DNA of 32,000 bases, from assembly GCF_000020025.1 (NCBI RefSeq), contig NC_010628.1, positions 4,080,001 to 4,112,000 on the forward strand, written 5' to 3'. Positions within the stretch are counted from its first letter, which is position 1, and the number at the start of each line of letters is the position of its first letter. A model generated the notes under the pieces. The model did no database searches, was not told the origin of the DNA, and saw nothing but the letters and a program-made list of their open reading frames with translations. Both the position numbers and the translations under genes were made by a program. Below, piece after piece: positions 6,048-26,408 of the stretch. The stretch comes from Nostoc punctiforme PCC 73102 (GTDB taxonomy: Bacteria; Cyanobacteriota; Cyanobacteriia; Cyanobacteriales; Nostocaceae).

Positions 6048-6059
6048 TAAGTATGAGAA

Positions 6060-6093
6060 TGCCTAGGTTGAGCTACGCCTAGGCACAACTTTT
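6060..6093. terminator. Hairpin between convergent genes (candidate bidirectional terminator)
   Basis: TGCCTAGG (6060..6067) pairs with CCTAGGCA (6078..6085) across a 10-nt loop, followed by CAACTTTT. It lies 13 nt after the A2M stop and before the 3' end of the minus-strand 86-aa ORF. Confidence 0.45.
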
Positions 6094-6164
6094 ACTGCAA
6101 TTAAGTACAATCAAATGTTGTCGTTATTTACTGGAAACCACAATTGCCTGGAATGGGATTAATT

Positions 6165-6425
6165 TCAGGATTTCTCTGAGGGTTCCTCATCAATGAACAA
6201 TGCTTTCTTACTACGCTTCAACTGTTTCCAAAGTGCTTTAATTTGTTTGTAAGCATCTTCTGGCTCAATCTTTCCAGATGTTTCTAGATTGGTAATGTAG
6301 CCAACTTTTTGAGCAAATTCTTGAAGGTTGGCATTAAATACTAAATTCTCTGGCTTAACTTGACCGTAATAGCGACTACGAGGGTAAAGAAATTTGTTTT
6401 TGTCGTCAAGATTAGTCTCGTCCAT
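6165..6425 (-). CDS. Small hypothetical protein (86 aa)
   Basis: ATG-initiated ORF convergent with the A2M gene. Composition looks coding (charged C-terminus, no repeat content). No family recognised by eye. Confidence 0.5.
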   Translation of the reverse strand: MDETNLDDKNKFLYPRSRYYGQVKPENLVFNANLQEFAQKVGYITNLETSGKIEPEDAYKQIKALWKQLKRSKKALFIDEEPSEKS

Positions 6426-6691
6426 TATTTCACCCCCAATAAGTGACTTTTACCAACGATAATCACAACAAAGATGGCTTCAATGAAGAAATTGCCGCGA
6501 TTATTGTGAACGATGAGCCAGTCTAAAAGGGAACACAAAATTAAGTATACAGCAAGTAGCTATTTATTAGCTGTGATTATAGTAAGCTTTTCCAATCATG
6601 GACATTAAGTGTAGACTATACCAGGTTCTGTTAATAGCATTGCAATCAGTGGGTCTAGATTAAGCATTTTTCCCTTCTCTCTGTGTCCTCT

Positions 6692-6836
6692 GGGTTAACC
6701 CTCAATACTTCTAGCTTTGTGCATTTTTAACTCGGAATCGGGTTTAGGGGAAAGGGTACTGGGTTTGGGTTAAAGGTTTTTCTTTCCCTTTTACCTTCCC
6801 CTTTTCCCCAAAACCCGAGAAGTATTGGGTTAACCC
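6692..6836. repeat. MITE-like long hairpin element
   Basis: Terminal inverted repeats GGGTTAACCCTCAATACTTCT (6692..6712) and AGAAGTATTGGGTTAACCC (6818..6836). Interior arms are also complementary: CGGGTTT 6739..6745 with AAACCCG 6811..6817, and GGGGAAAGGG 6747..6756 with CCCCTTTTCCCC 6798..6809. Intergenic. Confidence 0.55.
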
Positions 6837-6892
6837 TAACTGAACCGTATTAGGATTTAGCTGGCACATTTTCAGATATTATACAAATCTTA

Positions 6893-8101
6893 TTATTTTA
6901 CAACTACCCATTGCGTTACAGGTGCCATTGCCCGCCAGCCCAAAAATTTACCAATAGGTTCCGTCCGTTGAATGGCAACACGAGTTAAATCGCCACCGAC
7001 TCGTTCATGCCATTGAAATAAAGTTTGCTCGCCCTCTACCGTCACCACATTTGCTACCAAACGCCCACCCGGACGCAGTGCTTCCCAGCAAACATCAAAA
7101 AGTCCTGTTGCTGTCACCCCACCACCAATAAAAATAGCATCTGGTGCTGGCAAATCTTTCAGTGCATGGGGCGCTTTACCTTCAATGATTTGCACATTTG
7201 GAGTACCGAGAGTGGCGGCATTATCGGCAATATAAAGTAGTCTAGAAGAATTTTGTTCGATCGCGATCGCTCGACATCGAGCATTACTCCGCATCCATTC
7301 GATAGAAATTGAACCGCAACCCGCGCCAACATCCCACAACAATTGTCCCGGTGTGGGTGCTAAAGCTGCTAGGGTGATTGCCCTAACCTCACGCTTCGTT
7401 AACTGTCCATCGTGGTGATAAGCGTTATCTGGTAGCCCTGGTAATCTTGGTAATGGGATAACCCCAGCATCAGCAATACAATAAACTGCGATCGCATTCA
7501 AAGCCGCAACTTCAGTTTCACTCCAAGATGCAGCCGTACCTTCCACAATTCTTTCATGAGTACCGCCCATACGCTCCAAGACGGTAATTTCGCTGCCACC
7601 ATAGCCGCGATTTGTCAAAATTTTCGCAACAATGGCGGGTGTGTCCTTCCCTCCACTCAAAATCAACAACCGTGCTTTTGGGTAAATGTAAGACTGGAGT
7701 AGGGAGGATGGACGACCATTCAAACTCAAGGTTTCCACCTCAGTTAAAGACCATCCCATCCTGGCACAGGCGAGGCTGAAAGCTGAAGGTGCGGGGATAA
7801 TCGTCATTTCAGAAACGGGAATTCGCCGCATTAAGGTGACACCAATGCCGTAACACATCGGATCGCCGCTTGCGAGTACGCAGATTGACTGACCGCGACG
7901 CTGAATGATTTCGTCTACAGAAATGCTAATGGGGGATGTCCAGACTATTTTTTCACGTTGATCGTCTGTAGGGAGCATTGCTAAATGGCGATCGCCTCCG
8001 ACAATTACTTTAGCTCGATCGACTAGAGAACGAGCGATAGCACTTAACCCCTGTAATCCATCTTCCCCAATGCCCACGATAGAAAGCCATTTCTCTGTCA
8101 T
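6893..8101 (-). CDS. cobL: Precorrin-6Y C5,15-methyltransferase (decarboxylating), CbiE/CbiT fusion
   Basis: 402 aa. N-terminal tetrapyrrole methylase half (LSIVGIGEDG...GDPMCYGIG). C-terminal CbiT-type SAM methyltransferase half (TKREVRAITLAAL...LWDVGAGCGSISIEW). Confidence 0.9.
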   Translation of the reverse strand: MTEKWLSIVGIGEDGLQGLSAIARSLVDRAKVIVGGDRHLAMLPTDDQREKIVWTSPISISVDEIIQRRGQSICVLASGDPMCYGIGVTLMRRIPVSEMTIIPAPSAFSLACARMGWSLTEVETLSLNGRPSSLLQSYIYPKARLLILSGGKDTPAIVAKILTNRGYGGSEITVLERMGGTHERIVEGTAASWSETEVAALNAIAVYCIADAGVIPLPRLPGLPDNAYHHDGQLTKREVRAITLAALAPTPGQLLWDVGAGCGSISIEWMRSNARCRAIAIEQNSSRLLYIADNAATLGTPNVQIIEGKAPHALKDLPAPDAIFIGGGVTATGLFDVCWEALRPGGRLVANVVTVEGEQTLFQWHERVGGDLTRVAIQRTEPIGKFLGWRAMAPVTQWVVVK

Positions 8102-8206
8102 GCTAATTCATGATTAATAATTAAGATTTGACGCTAATTCTAATTCTGAATTATTCCGTCAATTTTGGTAGGATATAGTTCATAGTGCTGGATTGAGGAT
8201 AACAGG

Positions 8207-8428
8207 ATGAACTCGCTCCCAGAAATAGAAGCTGCTATTATGCAACTGTCTGAAGGTGAAATGCGGGATTTATCAAACTGGCTTCAAGAATATCTCAATG
8301 ATGCTTGGGATAAGCAAATTGAAACAGATACAAAATTGGGTCAATTGGATCGGTTAATCCAGCGTGCAAAAGCAGATATTAAAGCTAATCGGGTGAAACC
8401 GTTAGATGAAATCCTTAACAACCCCTGA
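8207..8428 (+). CDS. Putative type II antitoxin (addiction-module component)
   Basis: 73-aa ORF whose 3' end overlaps the ATG of a ParE-like toxin reading frame by 23 nt. N-terminal IEAAIMQLSEGEMRDLSNWL resembles addiction-module antitoxin helices. Confidence 0.55.
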   Translation: MNSLPEIEAAIMQLSEGEMRDLSNWLQEYLNDAWDKQIETDTKLGQLDRLIQRAKADIKANRVKPLDEILNNP

Positions 8429-8783: not shown

Positions 8784-9992
8784 TTATACCAGCGCTGCTG
8801 TTGCTTTCACAGCAAAAATCTTCTCAATCACATCTTCTACCACCTTATCTGGTGTAGAAGCACCAGAAGTAATTCCCACGACAATTTCACCGTCTGGCAA
8901 CCAGTTTTCTGTAGTTATTAATTGCCCATTTAATTGTCGATGTTCTATAGAATCTCCTGATTTAATCCGTTCAACAGTATCAATGTGATAAGAGGGAATT
9001 CTCCGCTCAAAAGCAATTTGTTGTAATTGAGTAGTATTTGATGAATTAAATCCACCAATTACTACCATTAAATTTAAGTTATGCTCCACTAATTCCAACA
9101 TTGCATCTTGCCGTTCTTGGGTGGCATCACAGATGGTATTGAAGCTTTGAAAATGCTGATTTAACTCGATAGGACTATACTTCTGCAACATAGTCCGCTC
9201 AAAAAGTTTCCCGATTTGCTCAGTTTCGTCTTTAAGCATCGTAGTCTGGTTAGCAATGCCAACTCTTTCTAAATCACGATCGGGGTCAAATCCTGCTGAA
9301 CAAGCTTTAGCAAATTTTGTCAGAAATTCTTCACGATTTCCACCATTGATAATATAGTCAGCAACATATTGCGCTTCTTGCAAGTTCAACACAATCAAAT
9401 ACTTGCCAGCAAATGAACTAGTAGCGACTGTTTCTTCGTGCTTATATTTACCGTGAATTATTGATGTATAATCTATTTTTTTGTGCTTTTCTACTGTATT
9501 CCAAACTTTAGATACCCAAGGGCAAGTTGTATCAACAATTTTGCAGCCTTTATCGTGAAGGATCTGCATTTCTTGAACGCTAGCCCCAAAAGCGGGCAAT
9601 ATCACTACATCACCAGTGCCAACAACAGAAAAGTCTTTATTCTTTCCTTCAATGGGGATGAATTCTACTTCCATCTCCTGCATTCGCTGATTTACAGAAG
9701 GGTTGTGGATAATCTCGTTAGTAATCCAGATGTGTTCTGTGGGGAAGTGCTGACGGGTTTCGTAAGCCATGGCCACAGCCCTTTCTACACCCCAGCAAAA
9801 CCCAAAGGCTTGTGCCAGTCGGATCGTCACATCACCCCGTTGCAGAATGTAATTGCGATCGCGGATTTCTTGAATCAAATTACTCTGATACTCAGACTGC
9901 AACTGGGTGGCAACTTCTGCTTGATGACCAAACCCTTTGCGATTGTAATTTTCGGAATGTTGCAGGCTGCGCTTAAAAGCTTTTGTATCCAT
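8784..9992 (-). CDS. ispH: 4-hydroxy-3-methylbut-2-enyl diphosphate reductase (long cyanobacterial form)
   Basis: 402 aa. [26 protein letters not shown] and NQTTM motifs are typical of IspH/LytB, with the cyanobacterial N-terminal extension. Confidence 0.92.
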
Positions 9993-10107
9993 TAGATTTG
10001 TCTATTTCAACCACTATTTTTTATTTTCTCGCGCCAAGCCGCGATTTATACAGAGTTGTATTCAAAAATATTATCAGAGAGGGGAAAGGGAAAAGGATTT
10101 AATGCCT

Positions 10108-10974
10108 TTACCCTTTAACCTTTAACCTTTTCCCATCTTCTTCTTGCTGGGATTTTAATTCGATTTCGCCATAAATCTGCAATGCAGAACGCCAAACTAT
10201 ATAGCCTTCGGGACTTAAATGTAAGCCATCAGTAGTAAATTCGCGGCGGAGATTTCCTTGTTTGTTGGTGAACAGGGGATATAAATCAAGATATTTGACA
10301 CCTTTTTTGGTAGATATGCTTTGCAGTTGCTGATTCAACTCCTGAATGCGACTATTGGCAACAGCTAGAAGTTTATCTCGTCCTTTCCAGCTTGCTTCCT
10401 CTGCCCCATGTGGCAAAATCGATTGCACAACAATTTGCGCGGTAGGATGCGTCTTTCGGAGGTAATTGATAATTTGTCGCTGATTATCTAAAATTTCCTC
10501 GTTGCTCATCCCCCGAATTAGGTCATTAATGCCAATCATCACAAAAATTACCTCTGGCTGGGTGCGGTCAAATATCTTCAACCTATTTAAGAGTCCATTA
10601 CTGGTTTCGCCAGAGATTCCTTGATTGAGCCAAGTTTTACCTTCGGGTAATAACTCAGGGGGAAACCATAAACTCAGAGAATCTCCCGCCAGGATAGTTA
10701 AATGCGGAGGACGTTGGTCGGCAGCGACCTTGGCTTCTTGCTTGAGAATTTCTACCCACTCTTGGTAAGTGAGTTGGTGACGACGACCCAAATCAGGTGT
10801 AGCAATTTGGGTTGAGTTGTTCAGGTTAATTTGTTCTGGGGATGTAACTATCCCAAAAAAAGCGGCCAATTTCTGCTGTTGCCAAATTAGCAGAATGACC
10901 GCCAACATTAGGATGCCGTTAGTTAACAGCGAGAAAAATGCCCAGATAGGAAAGGTTTTTGCAGAAGTAGACAC
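10108..10974 (-). CDS. SGNH/GDSL-family hydrolase with N-terminal membrane anchor
   Basis: 288 aa. Block I AGDSLS, block III GINDL and block V DGLHLSPEGY, plus a hydrophobic N-terminal helix. The last ~9 codons and the stop lie inside a GGGTAAAGG-family repeat. Confidence 0.8.
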   Translation of the reverse strand: MSTSAKTFPIWAFFSLLTNGILMLAVILLIWQQQKLAAFFGIVTSPEQINLNNSTQIATPDLGRRHQLTYQEWVEILKQEAKVAADQRPPHLTILAGDSLSLWFPPELLPEGKTWLNQGISGETSNGLLNRLKIFDRTQPEVIFVMIGINDLIRGMSNEEILDNQRQIINYLRKTHPTAQIVVQSILPHGAEEASWKGRDKLLAVANSRIQELNQQLQSISTKKGVKYLDLYPLFTNKQGNLRREFTTDGLHLSPEGYIVWRSALQIYGEIELKSQQEEDGKRLKVKG

Positions 10975-11049
10975 GACTAGCGAAATTTACCAATTATTTG
11001 AATCAAATTTTAACGCTAGCGATCGCAAATTACACAATCTTAAATTGGG

Positions 11050-11209
11050 AGTGGGGAATGGGAGGGGCAGAGAGAGCAGGGGAGCAGGGGAGGTAGGGGG
11101 CAGAGGGAGACAAGGGGGAATTATTGAATGAATCTCTCCCTTGTCTCCCCCCTCTTCCTTGTCTACCTTGTCTCTTATTCATGCCCAATTCCCAATGCCC
11201 ACTTCCTAC
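11050..11209. repeat. G-rich ~150-bp dispersed repeat, copy A
   Basis: Shares the exact 15-mer GGGGGAATTATTGAA (11114..11128) and flanking blocks (AATCTCTCCCTTGTCT; TTCATGCCCAAT...CCCAATGCCCAC) with the reverse complement of 13657..13795. Contains a perfect 12-bp stem, GGGAGACAAGGG 11105..11116 with CCCTTGTCTCCC 11138..11149. Confidence 0.65.
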
Positions 11210-11212
11210 TAA

Positions 11213-12655
11213 CTAAGTCGGACGATCGCCAAACTCAGAGTTGTAACCCTCTTCGCCGTGTTCGTTGATATCCAAACCTTGCAATTCTGCTTCTTCTTTA
11301 ACACGCAGACCGACTGTAGCATCGATAACTTTGAGAATAATCCACGTACCAACACCTGCGATCGCGTAAGCAACGGCGATTGCTATTAGTTCAACTCCCA
11401 ATTCACCAAAATTACCACGTAGCACTCCGTCTTTACCTCCGCCGTTGACTTGAGTTGTGGCAAAGATGGCTGTTAAAATTGCCCCCACTGTACCACCAAC
11501 GCCATGCACGGGATAGGTATCTAAAGCATCGTCGATTTGCAGCTTATGCTTGAAACTTACAGCATAGAAGCAAACAAAGGCGGTGATGAAACCAATTAAA
11601 ATCGCTGATAGCGGTGTCACAAATCCGGCGGCGGGAGTGATCCCTACTAAACCAGCAACGGCTCCTGTAGCTGCTCCCACAGCTGTCGGTTTACCCCGTA
11701 AAACTGCTTCCAAAATTAGCCACATTAAAGCCGCCGCCGCCGCCGCTGTATTGGTGGCAACAAAGGCTGTTGTTGCTAAATTTGTTGTTAAGTTACCAGA
11801 AGTTCCACTAGCAACAGATAGGGCACTCCCAGCGTTGAAACCGAACCAACCAAACCAGAGCAAGCCAGCACCCAGCAAAATAAAAGGAACATTGTGTGGC
11901 GGACTAAGGCGATCGGGATGGGTTTTCCGAGGGCCAAGGACGATCGCAGCTACTAGCGCTGAAACGCCAGAACTAATATGAACTACTGTGCCACCTGCAA
12001 AGTCGAGGGCACCTAATCCACCAGCTAAACCCAAGAATCCACCTTTCGCCCATACCATGTGGGCTAGAGGGGCGTAAACAAAGGTTGACCAAAGCAGCAC
12101 AAACAGCGAATAGGCGCGGAAACTCATCCGCTCAACGAGTGCCCCAGAAATTAAAGCTGGGGTGATAATGGCAAACATGGCTTGATAAATCGTGAATGCC
12201 TGGTGGGGAATCGTTCCGGCATAAGAGACTACATCAGCATATTTGGGGTCTGCTGCTTTGAGCGCATCTTCATAAGGCAGATGTGGCAAGTAGCCTTGAG
12301 TCTCTAAACCAACACCGTTCAACCCAAACCATTGCAACCCACCAATGAATGGCAACCCTGGTGCAAAAGAAAGACTATAACCCCAGAGAATCCAGGTAAC
12401 TCCCACGATCGCCATCAAGACAAAGCTCATCATCAATGTGTTTAGGATATTGCGCGATCGCACAAATCCACCATAGAAAAACGCCAATCCTGGTGTCATT
12501 AGCAGCACTAATGCTGCTGAAATCAGCATAAATGCTGTGTCTCCAGTATCAGCAGCTGGTACAGCAACTGGTGTTTGGGCAAAAGCATTACCCATTAGCG
12601 GTCCTGCCAAAAACAGTAGGGTCATAGCCCCAATCATCACAACTTTCTTCAACAC
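11213..12655 (-). CDS. amt: Ammonium transporter (Amt family)
   Basis: 480 aa. Signal-like N-terminus, then canonical Amt motifs (DFAGGTVVHISSG, FGWFGFNAGS, PVHGVGG). The track start is GTG at 12655; ATG at 12637 is an alternative. Confidence 0.92.
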   Translation of the reverse strand: MLKKVVMIGAMTLLFLAGPLMGNAFAQTPVAVPAADTGDTAFMLISAALVLLMTPGLAFFYGGFVRSRNILNTLMMSFVLMAIVGVTWILWGYSLSFAPGLPFIGGLQWFGLNGVGLETQGYLPHLPYEDALKAADPKYADVVSYAGTIPHQAFTIYQAMFAIITPALISGALVERMSFRAYSLFVLLWSTFVYAPLAHMVWAKGGFLGLAGGLGALDFAGGTVVHISSGVSALVAAIVLGPRKTHPDRLSPPHNVPFILLGAGLLWFGWFGFNAGSALSVASGTSGNLTTNLATTAFVATNTAAAAAALMWLILEAVLRGKPTAVGAATGAVAGLVGITPAAGFVTPLSAILIGFITAFVCFYAVSFKHKLQIDDALDTYPVHGVGGTVGAILTAIFATTQVNGGGKDGVLRGNFGELGVELIAIAVAYAIAGVGTWIILKVIDATVGLRVKEEAELQGLDINEHGEEGYNSEFGDRPT

Positions 12656-12684
12656 TTCTTTTTCTTCCTAAGCACCAACGATTT

Positions 12685-12698
12685 GTATCCTTAACTAC
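12685..12698. promoter_or_regulatory. Candidate NtcA-type box (GTA-N8-TAC)
   Basis: GTATCCTTAACTAC fits GTA-N8-TAC upstream of amt. It is only 30 nt from the GTG start, and I see no TAN3T -10 box at the canonical ~22-nt spacing. Confidence 0.25.
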
Positions 12699-13222
12699 AT
12701 TTGATTACTTTTAGCTAGACATTTTTGTCTTAAAAGTTACTTAACTTTAATTTTGTGGAAATGTTAACAAAAATATAATCCGGATTGTAGTTGCCAAAAT
12801 GGAAACAAGAGTGTAACGATGCAATGATTGCATCTTTTTGTGCAGGATAGCATTTTATGCAAGCGCTACAAAACTCCAAATTTTTAGTTACTTACTGTTA
12901 CAAAACAAGATACTTGTAAAAATTGATAATAATTATCAATTTTCAGAAAATTTGTACAAATTTATCATGAATTCTCTTTATCTCTACGCATTTATGCGGG
13001 AGATATACAGATTCTTGCTTATCTTCGGCTGGTTATTAAAAAACCTTGGCAATTTTTGGTCAGCTTATTATGTGTTTAGGGGATTCCAGCAAAAGAAACA
13101 TCCCATCTCCAGATAGCACAGATGTGCTATCCAAACAAATGTATAAATAATTTTGGATAATTTATTTTTTGTCAGTCTCTGAAAAGCGGGTATTAAAAAA
13201 TTTATTAATCTAGAAGTTCTAC

Positions 13223-13546
13223 TTAAGGTCTGGGTGCAAACATGATAATTAGAACACTCACTAAAGCTAAACATGCTCCTATGAGGTCGTAGCGGTCTGG
13301 AATTACACCGTCAACCTTCCAACCCCAAAACATTGCTATTGCGATAAATACACCACCGTAAGCAGCATACACTCTGCCAAAATTTGCTGATTGAAGAGTT
13401 GCAATAACCCCATAGAAAGCTAAAGCAATTCCCCCCAATATGCCCCACCAGAACGGCTTACCTTCGCGCAACCACAACCAGATTAAGTAGCCGCCTCCAA
13501 TTTCAAATAAACCAGCCCACAAAAAATACAGCAGAGACTTAATCAT
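13223..13546 (-). CDS. ynfA: YnfA/UPF0060 family small membrane protein
   Basis: 107 aa with four hydrophobic helices. FEIGGGYLIWLWLREGK and GRVYAAYGGVF closely resemble E. coli YnfA as I recall it. Confidence 0.8.
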   Translation of the reverse strand: MIKSLLYFLWAGLFEIGGGYLIWLWLREGKPFWWGILGGIALAFYGVIATLQSANFGRVYAAYGGVFIAIAMFWGWKVDGVIPDRYDLIGACLALVSVLIIMFAPRP

Positions 13547-13656
13547 TTGACAAATTCATTTATCAGGTCGAACTCAGTGAAATTACGCTAACGCTTTTAA
13601 CTAAACTATTGCCATTAATTGAAGTAAGTTTATTGATCTGGGTATTGGCATTGGAT

Positions 13657-13795
13657 ATTAGGTAGTGGGCATTGGGCATTGGACATTGAACATGAAGAAA
13701 AGACAAGCGAGAGATTTGTTCAATAATTCCCCCTGCCTCCCCTGCCCCTCTGCCTCCCCTGCTCCCCCTGCCCTCTGCCCCAGCCCCCAGAATGT
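13657..13795. repeat. G-rich ~150-bp dispersed repeat, copy B (inverted relative to copy A)
   Basis: TTCAATAATTCCCCC (13719..13733) is the exact reverse complement of 11114..11128. AGACAAGCGAGAGATTTG and GTGGGCATTGGGCATTGG blocks mirror copy A. Confidence 0.65.
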
Positions 13796-13810
13796 AGATA
13801 AGGCGTAAGG

Positions 13811-15487
13811 ATGAAAGCACCATTACCTAATAACGAAATACAGAGATTCGAGACACTTTTGGAGTATAAAATTCTTGACACCCCATCCGAAGCTGCCTTT
13901 GATGATCTCACCCGTTTAGCCTCGTATATTTGTCAGACTCCTATTGCCTTAATTAGCTTAATTGATACAAATCGCCAGTGGTTCAAGTCAAGAGTCGGTT
14001 TAGATACCCTAGAAACACATCGAGATTTAGCATTCTGTAGCCATGCTATTTTACAGCCTGACGTTTTTGTTGTGCCTGATGCAACAGATGACGAAAGGTT
14101 TGCCACCAACCTACTGGTTACATCTGACCCAAATATTCGATTTTATGCTGGTGTACCTCTGACTAACCCTGAAGGATATGCTCTAGGAACTCTGTGCGTG
14201 ATTGATTACATACCACGAGAACTTACTCCAGATCAGATAGAGGCATTACGAACATTAGGTCGTCAAGTCATCAAACAATTGGAATTGCGCCGAAATTTAG
14301 CAAGTTTGGTACTTGTTAGCAAGAAAAGCAAACAGGCACAGAAGGTAAGCAAACAATTTTTCAAAAAGATTGTAGCAGGTTTTGGTCTAGCTTCGGTAAT
14401 TTTGGTTTTGATAGGTGTAATTTCTTATCAAAATACAACAGTATCTAGTAATAATCGCAGTGTCATAAAAAATGCTTATAAAAAGCTCAACAGTCTAGAA
14501 AAACTACTGTCTCAAATAAAGGATGCAGAGACTAGGCAACGTAGTTACATTATTACTGGAAAACAAACTTATATAAAACCCTATCAAGCATCACTAGCCA
14601 ACGTCAATCAGGAAATTGCCAAACTAAAGAACTTAACGATAGATCAACCAAACCAACAAAAGCAGATTGCAACACTTGAATTTTTGATTGCAGCTAAACT
14701 TGCTGAACTAAACCAGACTATCGACTTACGCCAAAAGAAGGGATCGGAAGCGGCGTTGCAGGTATTACTGACAAATAAAAGCCAAAATCTCATGGATGAT
14801 ATCCGCAAGGCGATCGATGAGATAGAGAATGAGGAAAGGGCGCAGCGGCAGCAACTTTCACAAACAGCACAAACTTGGACTCGCAAGACAACTGTGACAA
14901 TTGCGATCGCTATTTGCCTAAGTTTTATCGTTCTTGCTGTAGTTTACTACTTCATTTATCGTGAGGTAACAGAGCGCAAAAGGACAGAAGAAACCTTAAA
15001 TCAAGCAGGAATGGATGACTATCTGAGTAAGCCAGTGTTTAAAGAAAAATTAGCTGCCACTCTAGAGCATTGGACAGGCGTTATCCTCTCAAAACAAGAG
15101 CTAGTTGTTGATGAACAGACAGTTTCGACCACAAACAACGACACAAATGACCTAGCAATTGATTGGGAACACTTGCATCGAATATCGGAAAATGATGGAG
15201 AATTTGAATTAAATCTATTGCAAATATACCTTGAAGATGTTAGACCCCGTTTAGAGATAATGATTGCAGCGATCGCATCTGATGACTTTGGGCAAATTGC
15301 GCGAGAAGCTCATCACCTTAAAGGTGCTAGTGCCAATGTTGGAGCCACAGCTATGTATCTAGTCGCTGACAAACTAGAAAAGTTAGCTTACGAGCAAGAG
15401 CTTAGAGATGCTACTAACTTAGTTTTAGAGTCAAAAGAATTTATCAACTCTATGCAAGACTTTTTAACACGAAAGAATTCAGTCTGA
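13811..15487 (+). CDS. GAF-TM-CHASE3-TM-HPt sensor protein lacking kinase core and receiver (deletion derivative of a hybrid histidine kinase)
   Basis: 558 aa. N-terminal GAF domain (FDDLTRLAS...FYAGVPL). Two TM helices flank a CHASE3-like coiled region. A PAS-linker-like TERKRTEETLNQA joins directly to GMDDYLSKPV, the C-terminal motif of a receiver domain. An HPt domain follows (HHLKGASANVGA). AAGGA Shine-Dalgarno lies before the ATG. Confidence 0.8.
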   Translation: MKAPLPNNEIQRFETLLEYKILDTPSEAAFDDLTRLASYICQTPIALISLIDTNRQWFKSRVGLDTLETHRDLAFCSHAILQPDVFVVPDATDDERFATNLLVTSDPNIRFYAGVPLTNPEGYALGTLCVIDYIPRELTPDQIEALRTLGRQVIKQLELRRNLASLVLVSKKSKQAQKVSKQFFKKIVAGFGLASVILVLIGVISYQNTTVSSNNRSVIKNAYKKLNSLEKLLSQIKDAETRQRSYIITGKQTYIKPYQASLANVNQEIAKLKNLTIDQPNQQKQIATLEFLIAAKLAELNQTIDLRQKKGSEAALQVLLTNKSQNLMDDIRKAIDEIENEERAQRQQLSQTAQTWTRKTTVTIAIAICLSFIVLAVVYYFIYREVTERKRTEETLNQAGMDDYLSKPVFKEKLAATLEHWTGVILSKQELVVDEQTVSTTNNDTNDLAIDWEHLHRISENDGEFELNLLQIYLEDVRPRLEIMIAAIASDDFGQIAREAHHLKGASANVGATAMYLVADKLEKLAYEQELRDATNLVLESKEFINSMQDFLTRKNSV

Positions 15488-15794
15488 ATTCTGTAGGAGT
15501 AGCGGAAAAATATGTGAGTTTAAGTCCCACACTAATTAATTTTGAATTCTACATTATTTTTTCATCAGAAGAAATAATGTAACAAATCACACCTTACTTC
15601 CCAAACAAAAATAATTGGGTATAAATTCCAAATTTATATACAAAAACAGCTTTAATACAACTGTACTAATCAAAAATTATAGCATTTACAGGAATAAAAC
15701 TTGTATAGAATCTTCCTACATCTCCAGCAACTTTAGCTGATATAGTAGCTGATACCGTCATTACTTGGCGACTTATCATTATTCAAGAGGTCTT

Positions 15795-18484: not shown

Positions 18485-19090
18485 ATGAAAAAAAGAGAAA
18501 AAATTGAACGCGATTTTCAAAATCTTCTTGAAATTATTGAAAATCAACGACCAGGATATATAGCTGCAATGGACGAAGGAGTATCTGATGAAATAATCAG
18601 AGATTGCATCAAAATTCATCCAATTCCTGAAGGTTTAATGGCTATATACTCTTGCGTCAAAGGTTTATCTGTATCTAAATTAATCGAAAAGTTTGATTAT
18701 CCTACAGATTTCATTCCTGGTTGCGATTTAATAAATATTTATGAATTTGATAAAATAATTAATCTTTTAAAAGCAGTACATAGAAACCCTGAGCCTTGGG
18801 CATGGCAACCAGATATGATTCCTTTTCTAGTGTATTGCGATGTTGATTACTATTGCGTCAGAACATTGCCTTCAGACCAATCTGTTGTATTCTGTTCAAA
18901 AGAAAACCAATGGATTACCATCTGTCAAAATATTGAAGATTTTATTTTAATAATTACTGAATGTTATAAGCAGAATGCTTATTTTTTAGATAATGTATAC
19001 TTGGAAAAAAATTATGATTTGGAAGAAAAAATTATCTTAAACTTCAACCCTAATTATTATTCTCAAAATGACTTAAAACCAGAAGCATGA
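18485..19090 (+). CDS. SMI1/KNR4 (SUKH superfamily) immunity-like protein
   Basis: 201 aa, very AT-rich. GVSDEIIRDCIKIHPIPEGLMAIYSCVKG and MIPFLVYCDVDYYCV resemble the SUKH-1 N-terminal ligand motif and central strand. Weaker match than the next gene. Confidence 0.5.
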   Translation: MKKREKIERDFQNLLEIIENQRPGYIAAMDEGVSDEIIRDCIKIHPIPEGLMAIYSCVKGLSVSKLIEKFDYPTDFIPGCDLINIYEFDKIINLLKAVHRNPEPWAWQPDMIPFLVYCDVDYYCVRTLPSDQSVVFCSKENQWITICQNIEDFILIITECYKQNAYFLDNVYLEKNYDLEEKIILNFNPNYYSQNDLKPEA

Positions 19091-19214: not shown

Positions 19215-19808
19215 ATGGAAATCTTGAACTGGGAAAACCGTATTAGAGAATGGAGTCAAAAGCGAATAAAAATATTTCTTGAAGATTACGATGAAGAAGA
19301 TTTATCCCCGGAAGTTCGCAAATCTGGCTACTTAGGTTATCCTGGTGCAGCTGAGGAGCAAATAGTTACTACCGAAGCTCGTTTAAATGTAACTTTTACA
19401 CCTTCTTACCGGGAGTTTCTGAAAGCTTCTAATGGGTTACGTTCTATATCAGAATATAGTCTAGAGTTTTGTGGAACTGAAGATATTGTATGGTATGCTC
19501 CTGACCACCAAGATTGGGTAGATGAATTAATGGAAACTTGGAATAAACCAGTAACAGATGAGGAATATTTTGTTTATGGAGACGAACAATCAAATTACAC
19601 ATTTCGTCCAGAGTATCTACAAACATCGTTAGAAATTAGCAGTGAAGATATGGGCTATATATTTTTACTTAATCCTCAAATAATTGTCATAGATAATGAG
19701 TGGGAAGCTTGGTATTGCAATTTTTCAAGTTCATTTGGCATATATAGGTATCGTTCTTTTAGTGAAATGATGGAGGAAATATTAAACGATCCAGAATTTC
19801 TTGGATAG
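19215..19808 (+). CDS. SMI1/KNR4 (SUKH superfamily) immunity-like protein
   Basis: 197 aa. YPGAAEEQIVTTEARLNVTFTPSYREFLKASNGL is the classic SMI1_KNR4 opening motif. Acidic, W/Y-rich C-terminal half. Confidence 0.75.
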   Translation: MEILNWENRIREWSQKRIKIFLEDYDEEDLSPEVRKSGYLGYPGAAEEQIVTTEARLNVTFTPSYREFLKASNGLRSISEYSLEFCGTEDIVWYAPDHQDWVDELMETWNKPVTDEEYFVYGDEQSNYTFRPEYLQTSLEISSEDMGYIFLLNPQIIVIDNEWEAWYCNFSSSFGIYRYRSFSEMMEEILNDPEFLG

Positions 19809-20670: not shown

Positions 20671-21504
20671 TCACCACTCTTGTTTTTCCATGACACCCAC
20701 TAAGGATTGCAAGTCAAAATCGCGATCGCGTCCACTCAGACAGATGCCAGAACTAACAACAGTCAAGTCAGTTTTAGCGATCGCACTACTATGGCGAACA
20801 CCATCAGCAGTTGTCCAATCGACTGTCCAGTAGTCGCTGCGATCGTGGAATTGAGTTAAGGTAGCGCCACCCATTTGCAATGCCTTTCTCAATCGCTTTT
20901 CATCCTGTTGGGATTGAGTAAATCCCTCAATGCGCCGAGTTGCTAATTCATACACTGTGAGGATTTCTGGAGTCATACCTTTAAACTGTAATTCCTCAGC
21001 ATGAATGAGTTGCTTAACAGCAGATTGCAGAGTTTCAACAATTACTGGATCGGTACGGCGATCGATTTCCTCGAACCAAGATGAATGCCCATTCCAACGG
21101 ACAATAATTTGCTCAAAGGTAACGCCCTCGGTAACTAAGTGAACTGCGAGCGGCTTAACTATCTTTAACCGTTGATGCATATCTACTTCATTTACAGGAT
21201 ATGCTAACCAAGTTTGTCCCCGCAGTTGGTGTGCTAACCGCAGCCGTATTTGGGAAAAGTGTTGCAGGTATTCCACAATTTGGGGTAAGTCTGCTTCTTC
21301 TACAACCGTTGCTGTTTTTTCATCCACAGCCTGAAAGATGCCCCAACCTTCAAATTTACTAGGCTTTGGCGTGAAAGTGTAGCTCATCCCAGCTACCCGT
21401 GTGCGAACTCGTCCACCTTTGACGCAGGGCGCAAGGAATTGGGTAGTATGTAACTGTGCTTCTGCGATCGCAATTTGGTTGATTAGCTTAAATATGTTAG
21501 CCAT
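20671..21504 (-). CDS. Unknown-function protein (277 aa from ATG 21504), co-oriented partner of the ThiF-like gene
   Basis: Long ORF with coding-like composition that carries HIP1 sites. No catalytic motif recognised: no JAB HxH, no clear E2 HPN, no C-terminal GG. The track start at 21516 is a TTG; ATG at 21504 gives MANIFKLINQ. Confidence 0.75.
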   Translation of the reverse strand: MANIFKLINQIAIAEAQLHTTQFLAPCVKGGRVRTRVAGMSYTFTPKPSKFEGWGIFQAVDEKTATVVEEADLPQIVEYLQHFSQIRLRLAHQLRGQTWLAYPVNEVDMHQRLKIVKPLAVHLVTEGVTFEQIIVRWNGHSSWFEEIDRRTDPVIVETLQSAVKQLIHAEELQFKGMTPEILTVYELATRRIEGFTQSQQDEKRLRKALQMGGATLTQFHDRSDYWTVDWTTADGVRHSSAIAKTDLTVVSSGICLSGRDRDFDLQSLVGVMEKQEW

Positions 21505-21522
21505 AACTAATACCAATTTTTT

Positions 21523-21545
21523 AAAACAAGGTTACAGATGCAACC
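21523..21545 (-). terminator. Weak terminator/attenuator-like hairpin in the leader
   Basis: The minus strand reads GGUUGC-AUCU-GUAACC followed by UUGUUUU, ~20 nt upstream of ATG 21504 and ~55 nt downstream of the structured RNA. Confidence 0.35.
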
Positions 21546-21600: not shown

Positions 21601-21804
21601 TGCGTGCAAGTTGGTGGAGCATTACGTGTTCTCAGTTACTAGAGGGACTCCGCTGGTGAGTTGTTACACACTCTTTCAAGGATGGCTACTTTTAAGCCTA
21701 CCTCCCAGGTTCTTCGTACTCCCCATTCACACACGCCCACTGCATTTGGCAGTGTTACCTTTCCTCTCGTACTAGTATGTAGGCTCCACGAGTTGGGGCA
21801 CGCA
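21601..21804 (-). ncRNA. Structured RNA candidate carrying a sarcin-ricin-loop core and a 23S GTPase-associated-centre (H42-H44) look-alike
   Basis: On the minus strand, AGUACGAGAGGA lies at 21773..21762. A 58-nt segment at 21709..21652 aligns without gaps to E. coli 23S 1051-1108 (recalled): 41/58 identical by hand count, with three compensatory base-pair changes. All helices nest inside a closing stem (21804..21783 paired with 21620..21601). Confidence 0.55.
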
Positions 21805-21819
21805 AAAACTATATGTTAC

Positions 21820-21848
21820 ATTGTACTACAGAAACTCGCAAATGTAAA
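21820..21848 (-). promoter_or_regulatory. Sigma-70-type promoter candidate for the structured RNA/operon
   Basis: The minus strand reads TTTACA (21848..21843), a 17-nt spacer, then TACAAT (21825..21820). The predicted start at ~21812-21814 is about 10 nt before the first helix. Confidence 0.45.
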
Positions 21849-22200: not shown

Positions 22201-22974
22201 ATGATTCAACTCGATCGTCTAAGTATGACTTATAAAGGCGGAGTTATAGGGATTAAACCTATTTCTCTGAGCTTTATCAAAGGGCAATTCACTGTTATTT
22301 TGGGAGCATCTGGTTCTGGTAAATCAACTTTACTGCGCTGTCTTAACTATCTTAATCGCCCCACAACTGGTACTGTGATAGTTGAAGGATTGGGAAATCT
22401 ACATAACCGTAAGGTGTTGTATGAACATCGCAAGCGCACAGGGATGATTTTTCAGCAGCATCAACTTATTAGTCGGCAAACAGCTCTTGGGAATGTATTG
22501 GTAGGTCGTTTAGCGTACCATTCAACACTCCGAAGTTTCTTTCCTTTGCCCAAAGCAGATCAGTATATTGCCTTAGAATGTTTAGACCGGGTTGGGCTTT
22601 TGCATAAAGCTTTAACACGAGTGGATACTCTTAGCGGAGGTCAACAGCAACGGGTTGGTATCGCACGCGCCTTAGCACAAAAACCACAATTGATTTTGGC
22701 CGATGAGCCTGTTGCTAGTCTCGATCCTACTAGCACTCACAAAGTCCTCTCATTTCTGCGTCAGACTTGTCAAGAAGATGGAATTTCCGCAATCCTCAGT
22801 CTGCACCAGATCGATCTCGCAAGAATTTACGCGGATCGAATTATTGGGTTATCTCAGGGAAAGGTTGTCTTAGATGGTAAGCCAGCAGATATCAGTGCCT
22901 ACGAATTAAAGCAACTTTATAGTGACAAAGATAGTCCTGATGATGAAGGCTTTCAGGAAAGCATTAATTCCTAA
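22201..22974 (+). CDS. ptxA: Phosphite/phosphonate ABC transporter ATP-binding protein
   Basis: 257 aa. Walker A GASGSGKST, signature LSGGQQQRV and Walker B LILADEP. PhnC-type; first gene of a phnCDE-like set that ends with ptxD. Confidence 0.85.
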   Translation: MIQLDRLSMTYKGGVIGIKPISLSFIKGQFTVILGASGSGKSTLLRCLNYLNRPTTGTVIVEGLGNLHNRKVLYEHRKRTGMIFQQHQLISRQTALGNVLVGRLAYHSTLRSFFPLPKADQYIALECLDRVGLLHKALTRVDTLSGGQQQRVGIARALAQKPQLILADEPVASLDPTSTHKVLSFLRQTCQEDGISAILSLHQIDLARIYADRIIGLSQGKVVLDGKPADISAYELKQLYSDKDSPDDEGFQESINS

Positions 22975-23006
22975 TGGCTAAATTTACTGTACTGTTTTTA
23001 TATTAA

Positions 23007-23957
<951 letters not shown>

Positions 23958-24101
23958 TTTATAAGAAGAATTCAGAATTCAGGTGGTCACTGAGCTTAGT
24001 CGAAGTGAATCAGAATTCAGTATGAATTCTGTTTTTACTTAGCATTTTGCTCTATCCCTTTAGTAGAGTATTCTGAATTCTGTATTCTGACTCCTAATAT
24101 T

Positions 24102-24935
24102 TTGAATTTGGAGCGAAGCGACGTGACACTTCCTAATCCTCAACCAGCTTTCGATCGGCTACTGAAACAACAACGGCGGCAATGGTATCGAACAATAGTA
24201 ACCTGGGCGATCGCACTTTTGGCTATAGCTATATGTTGCTTTCTGGTTGGGCTTTGGGACGAGAAACGGCTTTCGGATGGGATTCCCAGTATCTTAAACT
24301 TGCTGCATCAAATGCTGCCTCCAGATTTTAGCGATGCCCGAAACTGGGTCAAACCTTTATTTGATACGCTGGCGATGAGCGTTGCAGGCACTGCGATCGC
24401 TATTGTCTTCTCGATGCCTCTATCTTTATTAGCGGCTCGGAATACAACTCCCCATCCCTTGCTATTTCAAGTTTCACGGCTGATTCTCAACGGCTTGCGC
24501 TCTGTGCCAGAGCTAATTATGGGCATTATCTTTGTGGCAGCTGTTGGCTTTGGGGCATTACCCGGAACCTTGGCGGTGGGATTTCACTCGATTGGCATGG
24601 TCGGCAAATTCTTTGCAGAATATATCGAACTGGTCAACGAAGCACCGCTAGAAGCAGCAAGAGCGGCTGGAGCCAACAAGGTGCAAGTAATCTATCACGG
24701 AATTTTACCGCAGGTTTTACCGCAAATGATGGATCTGACCCTTTATCGATGGGAATATAACTTTCGTGCCTCCACGGTTATGGGAGCAGTAGGGGCTGGT
24801 GGCATTGGGTTTGAGCTAATTGGCGCACTTCGCCTGATCAATTATCGGGAAGTTTTAGCAGTGCTACTAGTAATTTTGTTTATGGTAATTCTGGTTGATG
24901 GTTTTAGTAGTTATCTTAGAAAACGTTTAGTTTAG
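24102..24935 (+). CDS. ptxC: Phosphite/phosphonate ABC transporter permease
   Basis: 277 aa, PhnE-type permease with multiple TM helices and an EAA-like loop (EAARAAGANKVQVIYHGILPQV). The start is a TTG in the track and its exact position is uncertain. Confidence 0.85.
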   Translation: MNLERSDVTLPNPQPAFDRLLKQQRRQWYRTIVTWAIALLAIAICCFLVGLWDEKRLSDGIPSILNLLHQMLPPDFSDARNWVKPLFDTLAMSVAGTAIAIVFSMPLSLLAARNTTPHPLLFQVSRLILNGLRSVPELIMGIIFVAAVGFGALPGTLAVGFHSIGMVGKFFAEYIELVNEAPLEAARAAGANKVQVIYHGILPQVLPQMMDLTLYRWEYNFRASTVMGAVGAGGIGFELIGALRLINYREVLAVLLVILFMVILVDGFSSYLRKRLV

Positions 24936-24995
24936 TACAGCACGACATAAATAAACCACCCATCCCCGATCAACAACACGCTTATACTGTATTCA

Positions 24996-25023
24996 TTTTT
25001 AATTTTTAATTTTTAATTTTTAA
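24996..25023. repeat. Heptamer tandem repeat (TTTTTAA x4)
   Basis: Four perfect 7-mers in the ptxC-ptxD spacer, just upstream of the AGGAGG ribosome-binding site of ptxD. Confidence 0.7.
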
Positions 25024-25052
25024 TTCCGCCTTGCGGTACTAGGAGGTTGCTG

Positions 25053-26045
25053 ATGAAACCCAAAGTTGTAATTACCCATTGGGTTCACCCGGAAATTATT
25101 ACAAACTTAAGTGAGTATTGTGAGGTAGTTGCAAATCCCACTAGAGAGACTTTACCGCGTGAAGAAATTCTCAAGTTAGCGCAGGACGCTGAAGCTTTGA
25201 TGGTTTTTATGCCAGATCGAATCGATGAGGCGTTTTTGAAAGCTTGTCCAAAATTAAAGATTATCGCCGGAGCATTGAAAGGTTACGATAACTTTGATGT
25301 TGATGCCTGCACTCGTCAAGGTATTTGGTTCACAATCGTACCTAGTTTATTGGCTGTGCCAACAGCTGAGTTGACCATTGGATTGATTATCGGGTTAGCG
25401 CGCCAGATGTTGCTAGGCGATCGCTTAATTCGTCAAGGCACGTTTGCAGGTTGGCGGCCGCATCTATACGGTATGGGATTAGCAAACCGAACACTGGGAA
25501 TCGTTGGTATGGGCAGTCTAGGGCAAGCCTTGGCTCAACGGCTTTCCAGTTTTGAAATGAACTTGATTTACACCGATGCGATACCTTTACCCAAGGAAAA
25601 AGCAGCAGCTTGGTGCTTGTCACAGGTTTCTCTAGATACGCTATTAGCAACCAGTGATTTTGTTGTGCTGATGGTTCCTCTACAACCAGAAACCTTTCAT
25701 TTGATAAATGAGAAATCTTTAGCACGTATGAAACCAGGGAGTTTCTTAATCAATCCGTGTCGCGGCTCAGTAGTTGATGAACAAGCGGTCAGTGATGCTT
25801 TAGCCTCTGGACATTTAGCGGGTTATGCAGCTGATGTGTTTGAACTGGAAGATTGGGCGCGTAGCGATCGCCCGTCGAAAATTCCTCCATCTCTCTTAGA
25901 GAAACAAGACCAAACGTTTTTTACTCCCCATTTAGGATCTGCGGTGGATGATTTACGATATGACATTGCTATAGAAGCATCTCAAAATATTTTACAAGTC
26001 TTACAAGGTCATTCTCCTCAAGGAGCGATCAATTGTCCAAGTTAA
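25053..26045 (+). CDS. ptxD: Phosphite dehydrogenase (NAD-dependent, D-2-hydroxyacid dehydrogenase family)
   Basis: 330 aa from ATG 25053 (AGGAGG lies 6 nt upstream). Colinear by eye with Pseudomonas stutzeri PtxD as recalled ([34 protein letters not shown]). Catalytic-triad contexts are conserved: [10 protein letters not shown] (Arg), ADVFELEDW (Glu), TPHLGSA (His). Confidence 0.88.
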
Positions 26046-26288
26046 AATTAGTCAAAATATCGAAAAAATCATCACATTACATAGAAGCGACGAGAAGGAC
26101 ATACCTCGACATCAGTCTAGACATCTTGCAAAAGTTACTTTTGCAAGATATCGGGGAAAGGGTAAAGGTTAAAGGGTAATATCATATCCGCATAATTAGT
26201 TATGCTAACCACAGTCATTGCACCCCACACGCCAGATGCTCTACTTGGGGAGACCCCAAAACCGTACTGGCTCCCCTTAATCTTGTTT

Positions 26289-26408
26289 CGACTGACAATG
26301 GCATTGCATCGACTGACAATAGCGTTGCATCGACTGACAATGGCATTGCATCGACTGACAATGGCATTGCATTGACTGACAATAGCGTTGCATCGACTGA
26401 CAATGCTA
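26289..26408. repeat. 21-bp tandem repeat array (about 5.7 copies, two alternating variants)
   Basis: Units CGACTGACAATGGCATTGCAT (A) and CGACTGACAATAGCGTTGCAT (B) in order A-B-A-A-B-partial, starting at 26289, 26310, 26331, 26352, 26373 and 26394. There are no spacers, so it is not CRISPR. Confidence 0.85.

Follow-up and report, generated by a model that had tools for sequence, protein, structure and literature searches.

The window analysed in this study is a stretch of 32,000 nucleotides (32 kb) of Nostoc punctiforme PCC 73102 (contig NC_010628.1, positions 4,080,001 to 4,112,000; coordinates given below are those of the window). On its minus strand, at 21804..21601, it encodes a structured RNA of 204 nt, in which 23S rRNA's sarcin-ricin loop (SRL) is joined to a complete copy of helices 42–44 (H42–44), i.e. 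the stalk base or GTPase-associated centre (GAC), in the reverse of the rRNA order. An earlier note on this DNA, made from the sequence alone, had proposed such a union, and our analysis bears it out. The RNA represents a family with a conserved fold, which mimics rRNA, shares a scaffold with RNAs carrying other inner modules, and is associated with particular genes, encoding an uncharacterised protein (here called X), a ThiF/E1-like enzyme and, in many related loci, a Ro60-like protein. That this is a genuine structured RNA and a genuine rRNA mimic is nearly certain. With less confidence, we favour the view that it is a non-coding RNA of a Y-RNA-like kind, with an effector module that imitates the stalk base and the SRL, and that it would act as a surrogate, decoy or adaptor.

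The minus-strand sequence of the segment is exactly as written in the earlier note. The SRL core recognized there, AGUACGAGAGGA (21773..21762, minus strand), occurs nowhere else in the window, even when one mismatch is tolerated (0.11 matches expected by chance). The 58-nt E. coli reference for the L11-binding domain given in that note is also exact (100% identity with annotated 23S rRNA in 5,426/5,426 E. coli genomes), and its gap-free alignment with 21709..21652 gives 41 identities out of 58, as counted by hand (E. coli 23S positions 1051–1108). The Rfam search suggested as a check assigned 21708..21653 (minus strand) to H42–44 of large subunit (LSU) rRNA. The archaeal model gave 54.6 bits, above its gathering score of 50 (E 4e-13), and the bacterial one 47.3 bits. 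No other Rfam match was detected anywhere in the 32-kb window and only 56 nt fit the LSU models, thus the RNA is neither surrounded by colinear 23S sequence nor part of a longer rrl remnant. Weak snoRNA and riboswitch matches obtained at permissive Rfam thresholds (E 3–8) were dismissed as noise.

The homologue from locus L081 aligns with positions 1078–1159 of the bacterial LSU model (52–58 bits), i.e. with complete H42, H43 and H44. The copied unit is therefore the complete stalk base of ~82 nt (21724..21643), comprising the lower H42 stem (GGGGA/UCCCU), the H42 internal loop and the 58-nt L11-binding domain. Since the L081 homologue spans this region, the loop that had been described as loop-E-like is none other than the internal loop of helix 42 in 23S rRNA. 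The closing stem of the SRL also has to be redrawn: it consists of four base pairs rather than about three, and it covaries (U-G/U-A/C-G/G-C exchanges).

The mimic shares with H42–44 and helix 95 (H95) of 23S rRNA the secondary structure, the bulged-G motif, the GAGA tetraloop, the residues A1067 and A1095, and the 1072/(1092-1099) triple. The two adenines are kept in 76/79 (A1067) and 79/79 (A1095) of the family sequences. In the same 79 sequences the positions 1072/1092/1099 read UUA in 70 cases, CCG in 3, and mixed or other combinations in 6; few independent changes have been sampled. These positions presumably form the base triple known from the crystal structure of the L11-binding domain (Conn, Gutell and Draper 1998). 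Their covariation, seen in these few switches, argues for a native tertiary fold. The compensatory changes first read from the comparison with E. coli are thus real and, within the family, extend to a tertiary contact.

In contrast to 23S rRNA, the two elements are only ~60 nt apart, with the SRL preceding the GAC copy, and they are embedded in an RNA with unrelated helices, encoded far from any rrn operon. The identity is ~80% (45/56 positions of the bacterial and 46/56 of the archaeal consensus); this comparison covers the Rfam consensus, E. coli and plasmid-borne 23S genes. A specifically archaeal or eukaryote-like character of the GAC copy was considered and dropped, as the window sequence scores higher on the archaeal model and the L081 homologue on the bacterial one, with 46 versus 45 identities out of 56. 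States specific to the family are common to its members from cyanobacteria through high-GC bacteria, which indicates that the module has been inherited within the RNA family and not repeatedly copied from host rrl genes.

Altogether, 88 distinct homologues were extracted, originating from cyanobacteria, high-GC soil bacteria and plasmids. The structure tested combined the helices drawn in the earlier note with the Rfam pairs of the GAC, and the test was performed on an alignment (A2) of 34 sequences, no two of which reached 95.5% identity. Every one of the drawn helices was supported: 94.9% of the cells were paired and 26 of the 49 pairs changed on both sides. This level of pairing was reached by 0/500 shuffles, and slid controls were 33–50% paired. 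Helix P1 was 97–98% paired, with G-C/U-A/C-G exchanges across RNA classes; P2 was 93% paired (three pairs changed on both sides) and also covaries across module classes; P5 was 93.5% paired (4/6 pairs changed on both sides). Each of the six pairs of the P4 hairpin is changed on both sides in some part of the family. Covariation and the lack of colinear 23S flanks thus uphold the view that the RNA is kept for its fold and is not a scrap of rrl.

Through protein X, 80 genomic loci were fetched, and the protein-anchored set searched for the RNA comprised 84 (L001–L082, L115 and L117). In 62 of these loci, a full-length copy is found no more than 4 kb upstream of X (84–98% identity), which confirms that the covarying RNA is present at homologous loci. 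Metagenomes were scanned with a pattern that places the SRL core 45–75 nt ahead of part of H43, a spacing absent from real 23S rRNA; this revealed 30 further loci, including four soil contigs with 58–66% GC. In the plasmid database PLSDB, full-length copies were found on a 69-kb Dolichospermum plasmid (where the RNA is unannotated by NCBI) and on a 1.2-Mb Kovacikia replicon, and real 23S genes matched the GAC part only (80–90% over 50–73 nt). The SRL..GAC pattern gave no match over viral contigs. Because the metagenome set had been selected on the SRL, conservation of the latter was checked in 63 distinct RNAs retrieved via protein X alone. Its core is invariant in all of them, with 116 of the 204 columns (57%) variable; one apparently variable SRL column reflects a gap placed in an A-run.

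Four Nostoc loci carry, in addition, a second copy of the RNA truncated at the 3' end and located ~1.7 kb upstream of the intact one (L019, 2034–2238; L034, 998–1199; L005, 1999–2196; L027, 997–1192). The 3' strands of P1, P2 and P5 are missing from these copies and point mutations are found in the SRL. They look like decaying duplicates, which would show how the RNA sequence changes under neutral decay. In L019, a minus-strand gene (367 aa; hydrolase-like by eye) lies between the two copies.

A covariance model built from the RNA alignment (R1) identified not only the rRNA-like RNAs, but also sibling RNAs of 72 to 183 nt, with the same P1, bulge, P2 and CUUACAUAC junction and other inner modules. 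At related loci they are mostly placed upstream of a conserved gene encoding a protein of 477 aa. The features common to all classes are two outer helices, the bulge CC(Y)RAY, the junction (C/U)UACA(U/C)AC and the 3' sequence RACUUG. Across classes (outer parts of 26 RNAs), 93.9% of the cells were paired, with G-C/U-A/C-G exchanges at the same positions, a result obtained in 0/500 shuffles. The bulged helix of this handle reads 5'-GUGC[CCY]RA, opposite a 3' strand UU-GCAC, and its ACUU is invariant.

Four kinds of inner module were distinguished: (i) complete tRNA cloverleaves (46–55 bits with the Rfam tRNA model, also called as tRNAs by ARAGORN) with drifting 'anticodons', (ii) modules of RNAs of ~135–140 nt (L029 and L056), whose stem-loops follow one another as V, T arm, closed 'acceptor' stem and D arm (V-T-AS-D), a layout read from the folds of these siblings (longer ones of 145–183 nt also occur), (iii) minimal forms of 72 nt, and (iv) the rRNA-like module (SRL plus H42–44). 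A contig of 66% GC carries three tandem scaffold RNAs, the third of which is rRNA-like. A scaffold that carries tRNA-like modules beside a Ro60-like gene places the RNA with the Y RNAs, and we regard the Y-RNA-like nature of the outer helices as likely. At locus L082 (Leptolyngbya AN02str; 1033–1501 and ~2720–2790), an operon of NADAR, RNase T, X and ThiF genes occurs without the rRNA-like RNA; three tRNA genes are located upstream, and an apparent tRNA fragment directly precedes NADAR.

The 477-aa protein, helical with a vWA domain (identified by Pfam), is encoded upstream and on the same strand in 67/82 loci. Its sole relative in PDB comes from Thermus phage phiLo and is a Ro60 homologue (E 0.0015, residues 30–393, i.e. 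364 residues). The phiLo protein consists of a ring of HEAT repeats and a vWFA domain and binds Y-RNA-like RNAs encoded just upstream (PMC12135203). A survey that started from TROVE-annotated proteins found few YrlA RNAs (bacterial Y RNAs) in cyanobacteria, and variants were expected. The TROVE model misses the 477-aa protein, which would explain its absence from that survey.

The same set of genes is present in an uncultured phage of 595 kb (LR756511.1), with at least seven scaffold RNAs followed by genes for the Ro60-like protein (47% identity), X (34%) and ThiF (51%). Some RNAs of this array are tRNA-like, ordinary tRNA genes are found further downstream, and no rRNA-like member was detected among the scaffold RNAs of the phage. 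In a soil contig of 63% GC (L093), the order is Ro60-like gene, rRNA-like RNA, X, ThiF. In one predicted protein (P0195), part of the Ro60-like helical region and the C-terminal two-thirds of X are united in a single chain. This could be a true fusion or an artefact of gene calling; either way, the two genes would be adjacent in a distant high-GC organism.

Genes for X and ThiF are present in 82/82 protein-anchored loci. X of the window (99% identical to its best database match) gave no Pfam, NCBIfam or PADLOC match, and a profile search against PDB sequences retrieved nothing. The family counts 1,328 homologues (812 representatives after clustering at 50% identity), and the Cys of its C-terminal motif GICLSGxDxxFDLxSLV (Cys255) is invariant. 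An AlphaFold model obtained with a diverse alignment (pLDDT 94.4, compared with 41 for a shallow one) consists of a string of small beta-barrels plus helices. Foldseek related this model to OB-fold domains only (IF1, OB rings of proteasomal ATPases), with no match of the whole protein. X is thus predicted to be a multi-OB protein, with several OB-like beta-barrel domains. A search started from a distant low-GC member retrieved two proteins only, with the contexts vWA-X and X-like beside a JAB peptidase. At L118 (7001–9393), a remote X relative of 236 aa adjoins a Prok-JAB peptidase and a deaminase; this context may hint at a link to ubiquitin-like conjugation systems. The ThiF-like enzyme contains a PF00899 adenylation domain of the Rossmann type (E 1e-29; 103.8 bits against a cut-off of 28.1). 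It scores below every NCBIfam equivalog cut-off and so belongs to none of the named subfamilies.

Other neighbours of the RNA vary. At L081 and related loci, NADAR and an RNase T-like exonuclease are encoded between the RNA and X, and a CCA-adding-type nucleotidyltransferase and DUF4291 upstream. KptA/Tpt1, NUDIX and an AAA ATPase are found near the RNA in L099 and L115, an RNA ligase fused to a tRNA-binding domain in L084, and microbial-type PARG in L085 and L109. A Schlafen/AlbA_2 protein also occurs among the neighbours. Judging from the predicted domains, this is a set for RNA-end repair and ADP-ribose removal. In L112, a soil contig of 62% GC (1267–2176, in the orientation of the RNA strand), an open reading frame (ORF) resembling a nucleotidyltransferase and then a HEPN-like one (by eye) lie between the RNA and X.

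Translational GTPases dock on a site made up of the SRL and H42–44, and toxins are known to attack both elements; cleavage and depurination of the SRL by ribotoxins belong to textbook knowledge. A toxin that ADP-ribosylates helix 44 of 23S rRNA has been documented (PMC8661411). The RNA probably stands in for the ribosome in a system of RNA surveillance or repair. We infer that a Ro60-like protein binds it and that it acts in trans. In such a system, the paired ends, P1 and P2 with the bulged helix, would be a handle for the Ro60-like ring, as in Y RNAs; the handle is most likely the binding site of this ring, because the same scaffold carries tRNA-like modules beside the Ro60-like gene. The effector module would be the SRL hairpin and the full H42–44 copy, in the place where the siblings have their tRNA-like domain. 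The RNA would thereby confront a system that responds to RNA damage with a copy of the GTPase centre outside the ribosome. The core of this system would be the Ro60-like protein, multi-OB protein X and the ThiF/E1-like enzyme, joined by variable accessory proteins that would strip off ADP-ribose or mend RNA ends.

This copy could serve as a sentinel or decoy, which agents directed against the SRL or GAC would attack or bind; or else it could be an adaptor, by which proteins that bind the GAC or SRL are brought to the Ro60-like ring. For tRNA, the tRNA-like siblings would have the equivalent role. The idea of a decoy or sensor, put forward in the earlier note, remains the most plausible class of function; a role as sentinel, decoy or adaptor is, in itself, only tentatively assigned. 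Equally tentative is the model in its full form, i.e. that a trans-acting replica of the GTPase centre on a Y-RNA handle is the rRNA sentinel or decoy of an unrecognised surveillance system (Ro60-like ring, multi-OB protein, E1-like enzyme), which detects or absorbs SRL cleavage, SRL depurination and GAC ADP-ribosylation and directs repair. This system would be common to cyanobacteria, soil bacteria and huge phages, its tRNA-like siblings acting likewise for tRNA.

Several observations weigh against this model. (i) Pfam TROVE did not match the 477-aa protein even at E ≤1, which makes the Ro60-like assignment weak, and NCBI names the protein only 'vWA domain-containing'. (ii) Neither a Ro60-like gene nor, in the R1 scan, a sibling RNA was found in the 32-kb N. 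punctiforme window, where the RNA is accompanied by X and ThiF only. (iii) The Ro60-binding motif of YrlA, GNCGAAN0-1G, does not occur in its literal form; in its place, GYCC(C)YRAY stands opposite RACUUG in the family. The vertebrate Y-RNA helix contacted by Ro60 reads GGUC[C]GA over UU-GACC, and the handle helix GUGC[CCY]RA/UU-GCAC resembles it, in our own reading of the two. (iv) The fold of the single sequence is not unusually stable (z = -1.0), and the structural argument therefore rests on covariation. (v) In the metagenome subset, conservation of the SRL and part of H43 is given by construction, as these loci were selected with a pattern. (vi) A pattern scan found no strong terminator directly after the RNA, which may thus be co-transcribed with X.

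Among other explanations, we considered a free-standing modulator of translation, which would titrate translational GTPases or uL10, uL11 and bL12 off ribosomes under stress, without a Ro60-like partner. Such a function would agree with the union of two rRNA elements that contact EF-G and EF-Tu in one RNA, and with a N. punctiforme locus that has no Ro60-like gene or sibling RNAs within 32 kb. Moreover, isolated SRL and GAC oligonucleotides reportedly bind EF-G (Munishkin and Wool 1997). However, one RNA species would have to compete with far more numerous ribosomes, and the linkage to X, ThiF and genes for RNA repair and ADP-ribose metabolism, as well as the tRNA-like siblings, would be left unexplained. 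We therefore give this explanation little credence.

It also seems improbable that the RNA is a cis-acting leader, i.e. the 5' untranslated region of X-ThiF or longer operons, through which X or another GTPase-centre-binding product would autoregulate its synthesis via the mimic. At most loci the RNA does lie directly upstream of the first gene of an operon, on the same strand (X in the window, NADAR in L081, a methyltransferase and then KptA in L115). The lack of a strong terminator and the predicted OB folds of X, typical of RNA binders, would also suit a leader, and the 204-nt RNA may perhaps be released from one. However, the downstream gene varies by lineage: X and ThiF are placed further downstream in operons headed by NADAR or methyltransferase/KptA, elsewhere the RNA precedes an RNA ligase or KptA, and no X-ThiF was found in the flanks of L084, L085, L099 and L109. 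Conversely, X-ThiF occur without the RNA. The closing stem also occurs in sibling RNAs, which form tandem arrays ahead of the Ro60-like gene as well as in the phage, an arrangement that fits independent RNAs better than leaders. The autoregulatory leader of the two downstream genes envisaged in the earlier note thus fits poorly (operon heads differ, siblings form tandem arrays, and X-ThiF also occur without the RNA), and a dedicated leader for these genes is unlikely.

A functionless, decayed fragment or chimera of the resident 23S gene is refuted: parts of the RNA are indeed 80–90% identical to real 23S genes over 50–73 nt, but there is no colinear 23S on either side, the SRL stands ahead of the GAC, changes are compensatory, conservation extends from cyanobacteria to high-GC bacteria, family members depart jointly from the bacterial consensus (e.g. 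U1072 with U1092-A1099), and genuine pseudo-copies of the RNA look different.

Of the known systems, the bacterial Y RNA YrlA is the closest to the family described here, as a modular RNA with paired ends in a conserved bulged stem and an inner domain mimicking another cellular RNA. In many related loci a Ro60-like gene likewise neighbours the RNA on its strand; there are often several paralogues, and phages encode such RNAs as well. For YrlA, a tRNA-like domain in V-T-AS-D order has been described, and same-strand location no more than ~4 kb away from a Ro60/TROVE gene is the criterion used (Chen et al. 2014, RNA 20:1715; PMC4201824). The V-T-AS-D layout recurs in the siblings from L029 and L056. 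In contrast, the inner domain of the 204-nt RNA mimics rRNA (SRL plus H42–44), not tRNA. A same-strand Ro60-like gene lies upstream in 67/82 related loci and is also present in the phage, and is missing from the N. punctiforme window; moreover, the partner protein is too divergent for the Pfam TROVE model. The constant companions are X and the ThiF-like enzyme, whereas in the Salmonella operon these are RtcB/RtcA.

The leaders of ribosomal protein operons are another case of rRNA mimicry, with the rplJ leader imitating rRNA for L10(L12)4 and the L11-operon leader for L1 (reviewed by Meyer 2018, cited in PMC8058203). They have in common with the 204-nt RNA that an rRNA structure is copied off the ribosome for recognition by a ribosome-binding protein. 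They differ in being partial mimics that act in cis upstream of the binder's own gene, and not a near-complete H42–44 copy plus the SRL on a Y-RNA-type scaffold. The genes downstream of our RNA encode X and ThiF, elsewhere NADAR, KptA or RNA ligase, and no ribosomal protein gene is among them. The likeness to 6S RNA, which titrates RNA polymerase, and to other decoy RNAs is a conceptual analogy: they imitate the natural nucleic acid ligand of a central machine, with another target and another fold. Rfam 15 contains no family for the 204-nt RNA beyond the LSU piece, and we found no paper linking Y RNA or Rsr with the SRL, GAC, L11 or ThiF, within an incomplete coverage of the literature. Y RNAs imitate tRNA; new here is a Y-RNA-type modular RNA with an rRNA-mimic module, on a type of handle that is already known.

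The coordinates of all features are collected in Table 1. The runner-up match of R1 within the window scored less than 10 bits. The promoter-like site pointed out in the earlier note (TTTACA-N17-TACAAT, 21848..21820) was recovered as the best-scoring site of the region, by consensus match only. It predicts a start ~10 nt ahead of the first helix, and its -10-like GTAGTAYAATGTAA block recurs upstream at other Nostoc loci, as judged by reading the flanks. The hairpin with a U-run ahead of gene X has a counterpart upstream of X at loci without the RNA. It may be a 3' boundary, an attenuator, or part of the leader of X itself.

Table 1. Coordinates of the 204-nt RNA, its parts and associated features (positions in the window, unless another sequence is named)
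Feature	Position	Strand	Evidence or remark
204-nt RNA (Y-RNA-like scaffold, likely, plus rRNA-mimic module)	21601..21804	-	covariance model R1, 244 bits, E ~1e-74
Promoter-like site: TTTACA (21848..21843), 17-nt spacer, TACAAT (21825..21820)	21820..21848	-	consensus scan, 10/12 matches
P1, 5' strand UGCGUGC	21798..21804	-	pairs with 21607..21601; followed by conserved bulge CCC(C)AAC
P1, 3' strand GCACGCA	21601..21607	-	invariant ACUU just before (21611..21608)
P2, 5' strand GUGGAGC	21783..21789	-	pairs with 21620..21614; followed by conserved junction CUACAUAC
P2, 3' strand GCUCCAC	21614..21620	-	covariation in A2 and across module classes
SRL (helix 95) mimic hairpin, 4-bp stem UACU/GGUA, core AGUACGAGAGGA (21773..21762)	21756..21777	-	exact 12-mer; covarying stem
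P4 hairpin CACUGC-CAAAU-GCAGUG	21738..21754	-	length and sequence vary between lineages
P5, 5' strand GCGUGU	21731..21736	-	pairs with 21629..21624
P5, 3' strand ACACGU	21624..21629	-	covariation
Mimic of 23S helices 42–44 (stalk base/GAC)	21643..21724	-	Rfam LSU match; alignment of L081 homologue
Terminator-like hairpin and U-run, downstream of the RNA and ahead of the start of gene X	21530..21545	-	pattern scan
Gene X, 277 aa, starts MANIFK	20671..21504	-	uncharacterised family
ThiF/E1-like adenylyltransferase, 212 aa	20011..20649	-	identical to Nostoc punctiforme ACC81736.1
Phage LR756511.1 (L121): ~4.6-kb largely non-coding stretch with scaffold RNA array, then Ro60-like gene, X, ThiF	5138–8284 and 9001–15616 (L121)

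Other features of the window were also recorded. Just downstream of ThiF, on the opposite strand, lie two SMI1/KNR4 (SUKH) genes (18485–19090 and 19215–19808, plus strand), a family typical of polymorphic-toxin immunity proteins. At 22201–26045 (plus strand) there is a divergent operon encoding an ABC transporter of the phnC/phnD/phnE type for phosphonate or phosphite, followed by a gene of the 2-hydroxyacid dehydrogenase family; this layout is reminiscent of ptxABCD phosphite oxidation. A 21-nt tandem repeat (5.6 copies, 90% match) is located at 26288–26405, with repetitive heptad ORFs on both strands.

If the proposed model is true, the mimic module is exchangeable, and a handle plus a mimic would be a general way to present surrogates of the translation machinery to a Ro60-type ring. 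The 204-nt RNA would then be the first natural minimal GTPase centre contained in a single RNA, useful in studies of off-ribosome recognition by EF-G, EF-Tu, uL10, uL11, thiostrepton and ribotoxins. The uncharacterised pair formed by X and the ThiF-like enzyme would be tied to RNA surveillance. The system is open to direct test, as the RNA is encoded by a genetically tractable model organism, Nostoc punctiforme PCC 73102.

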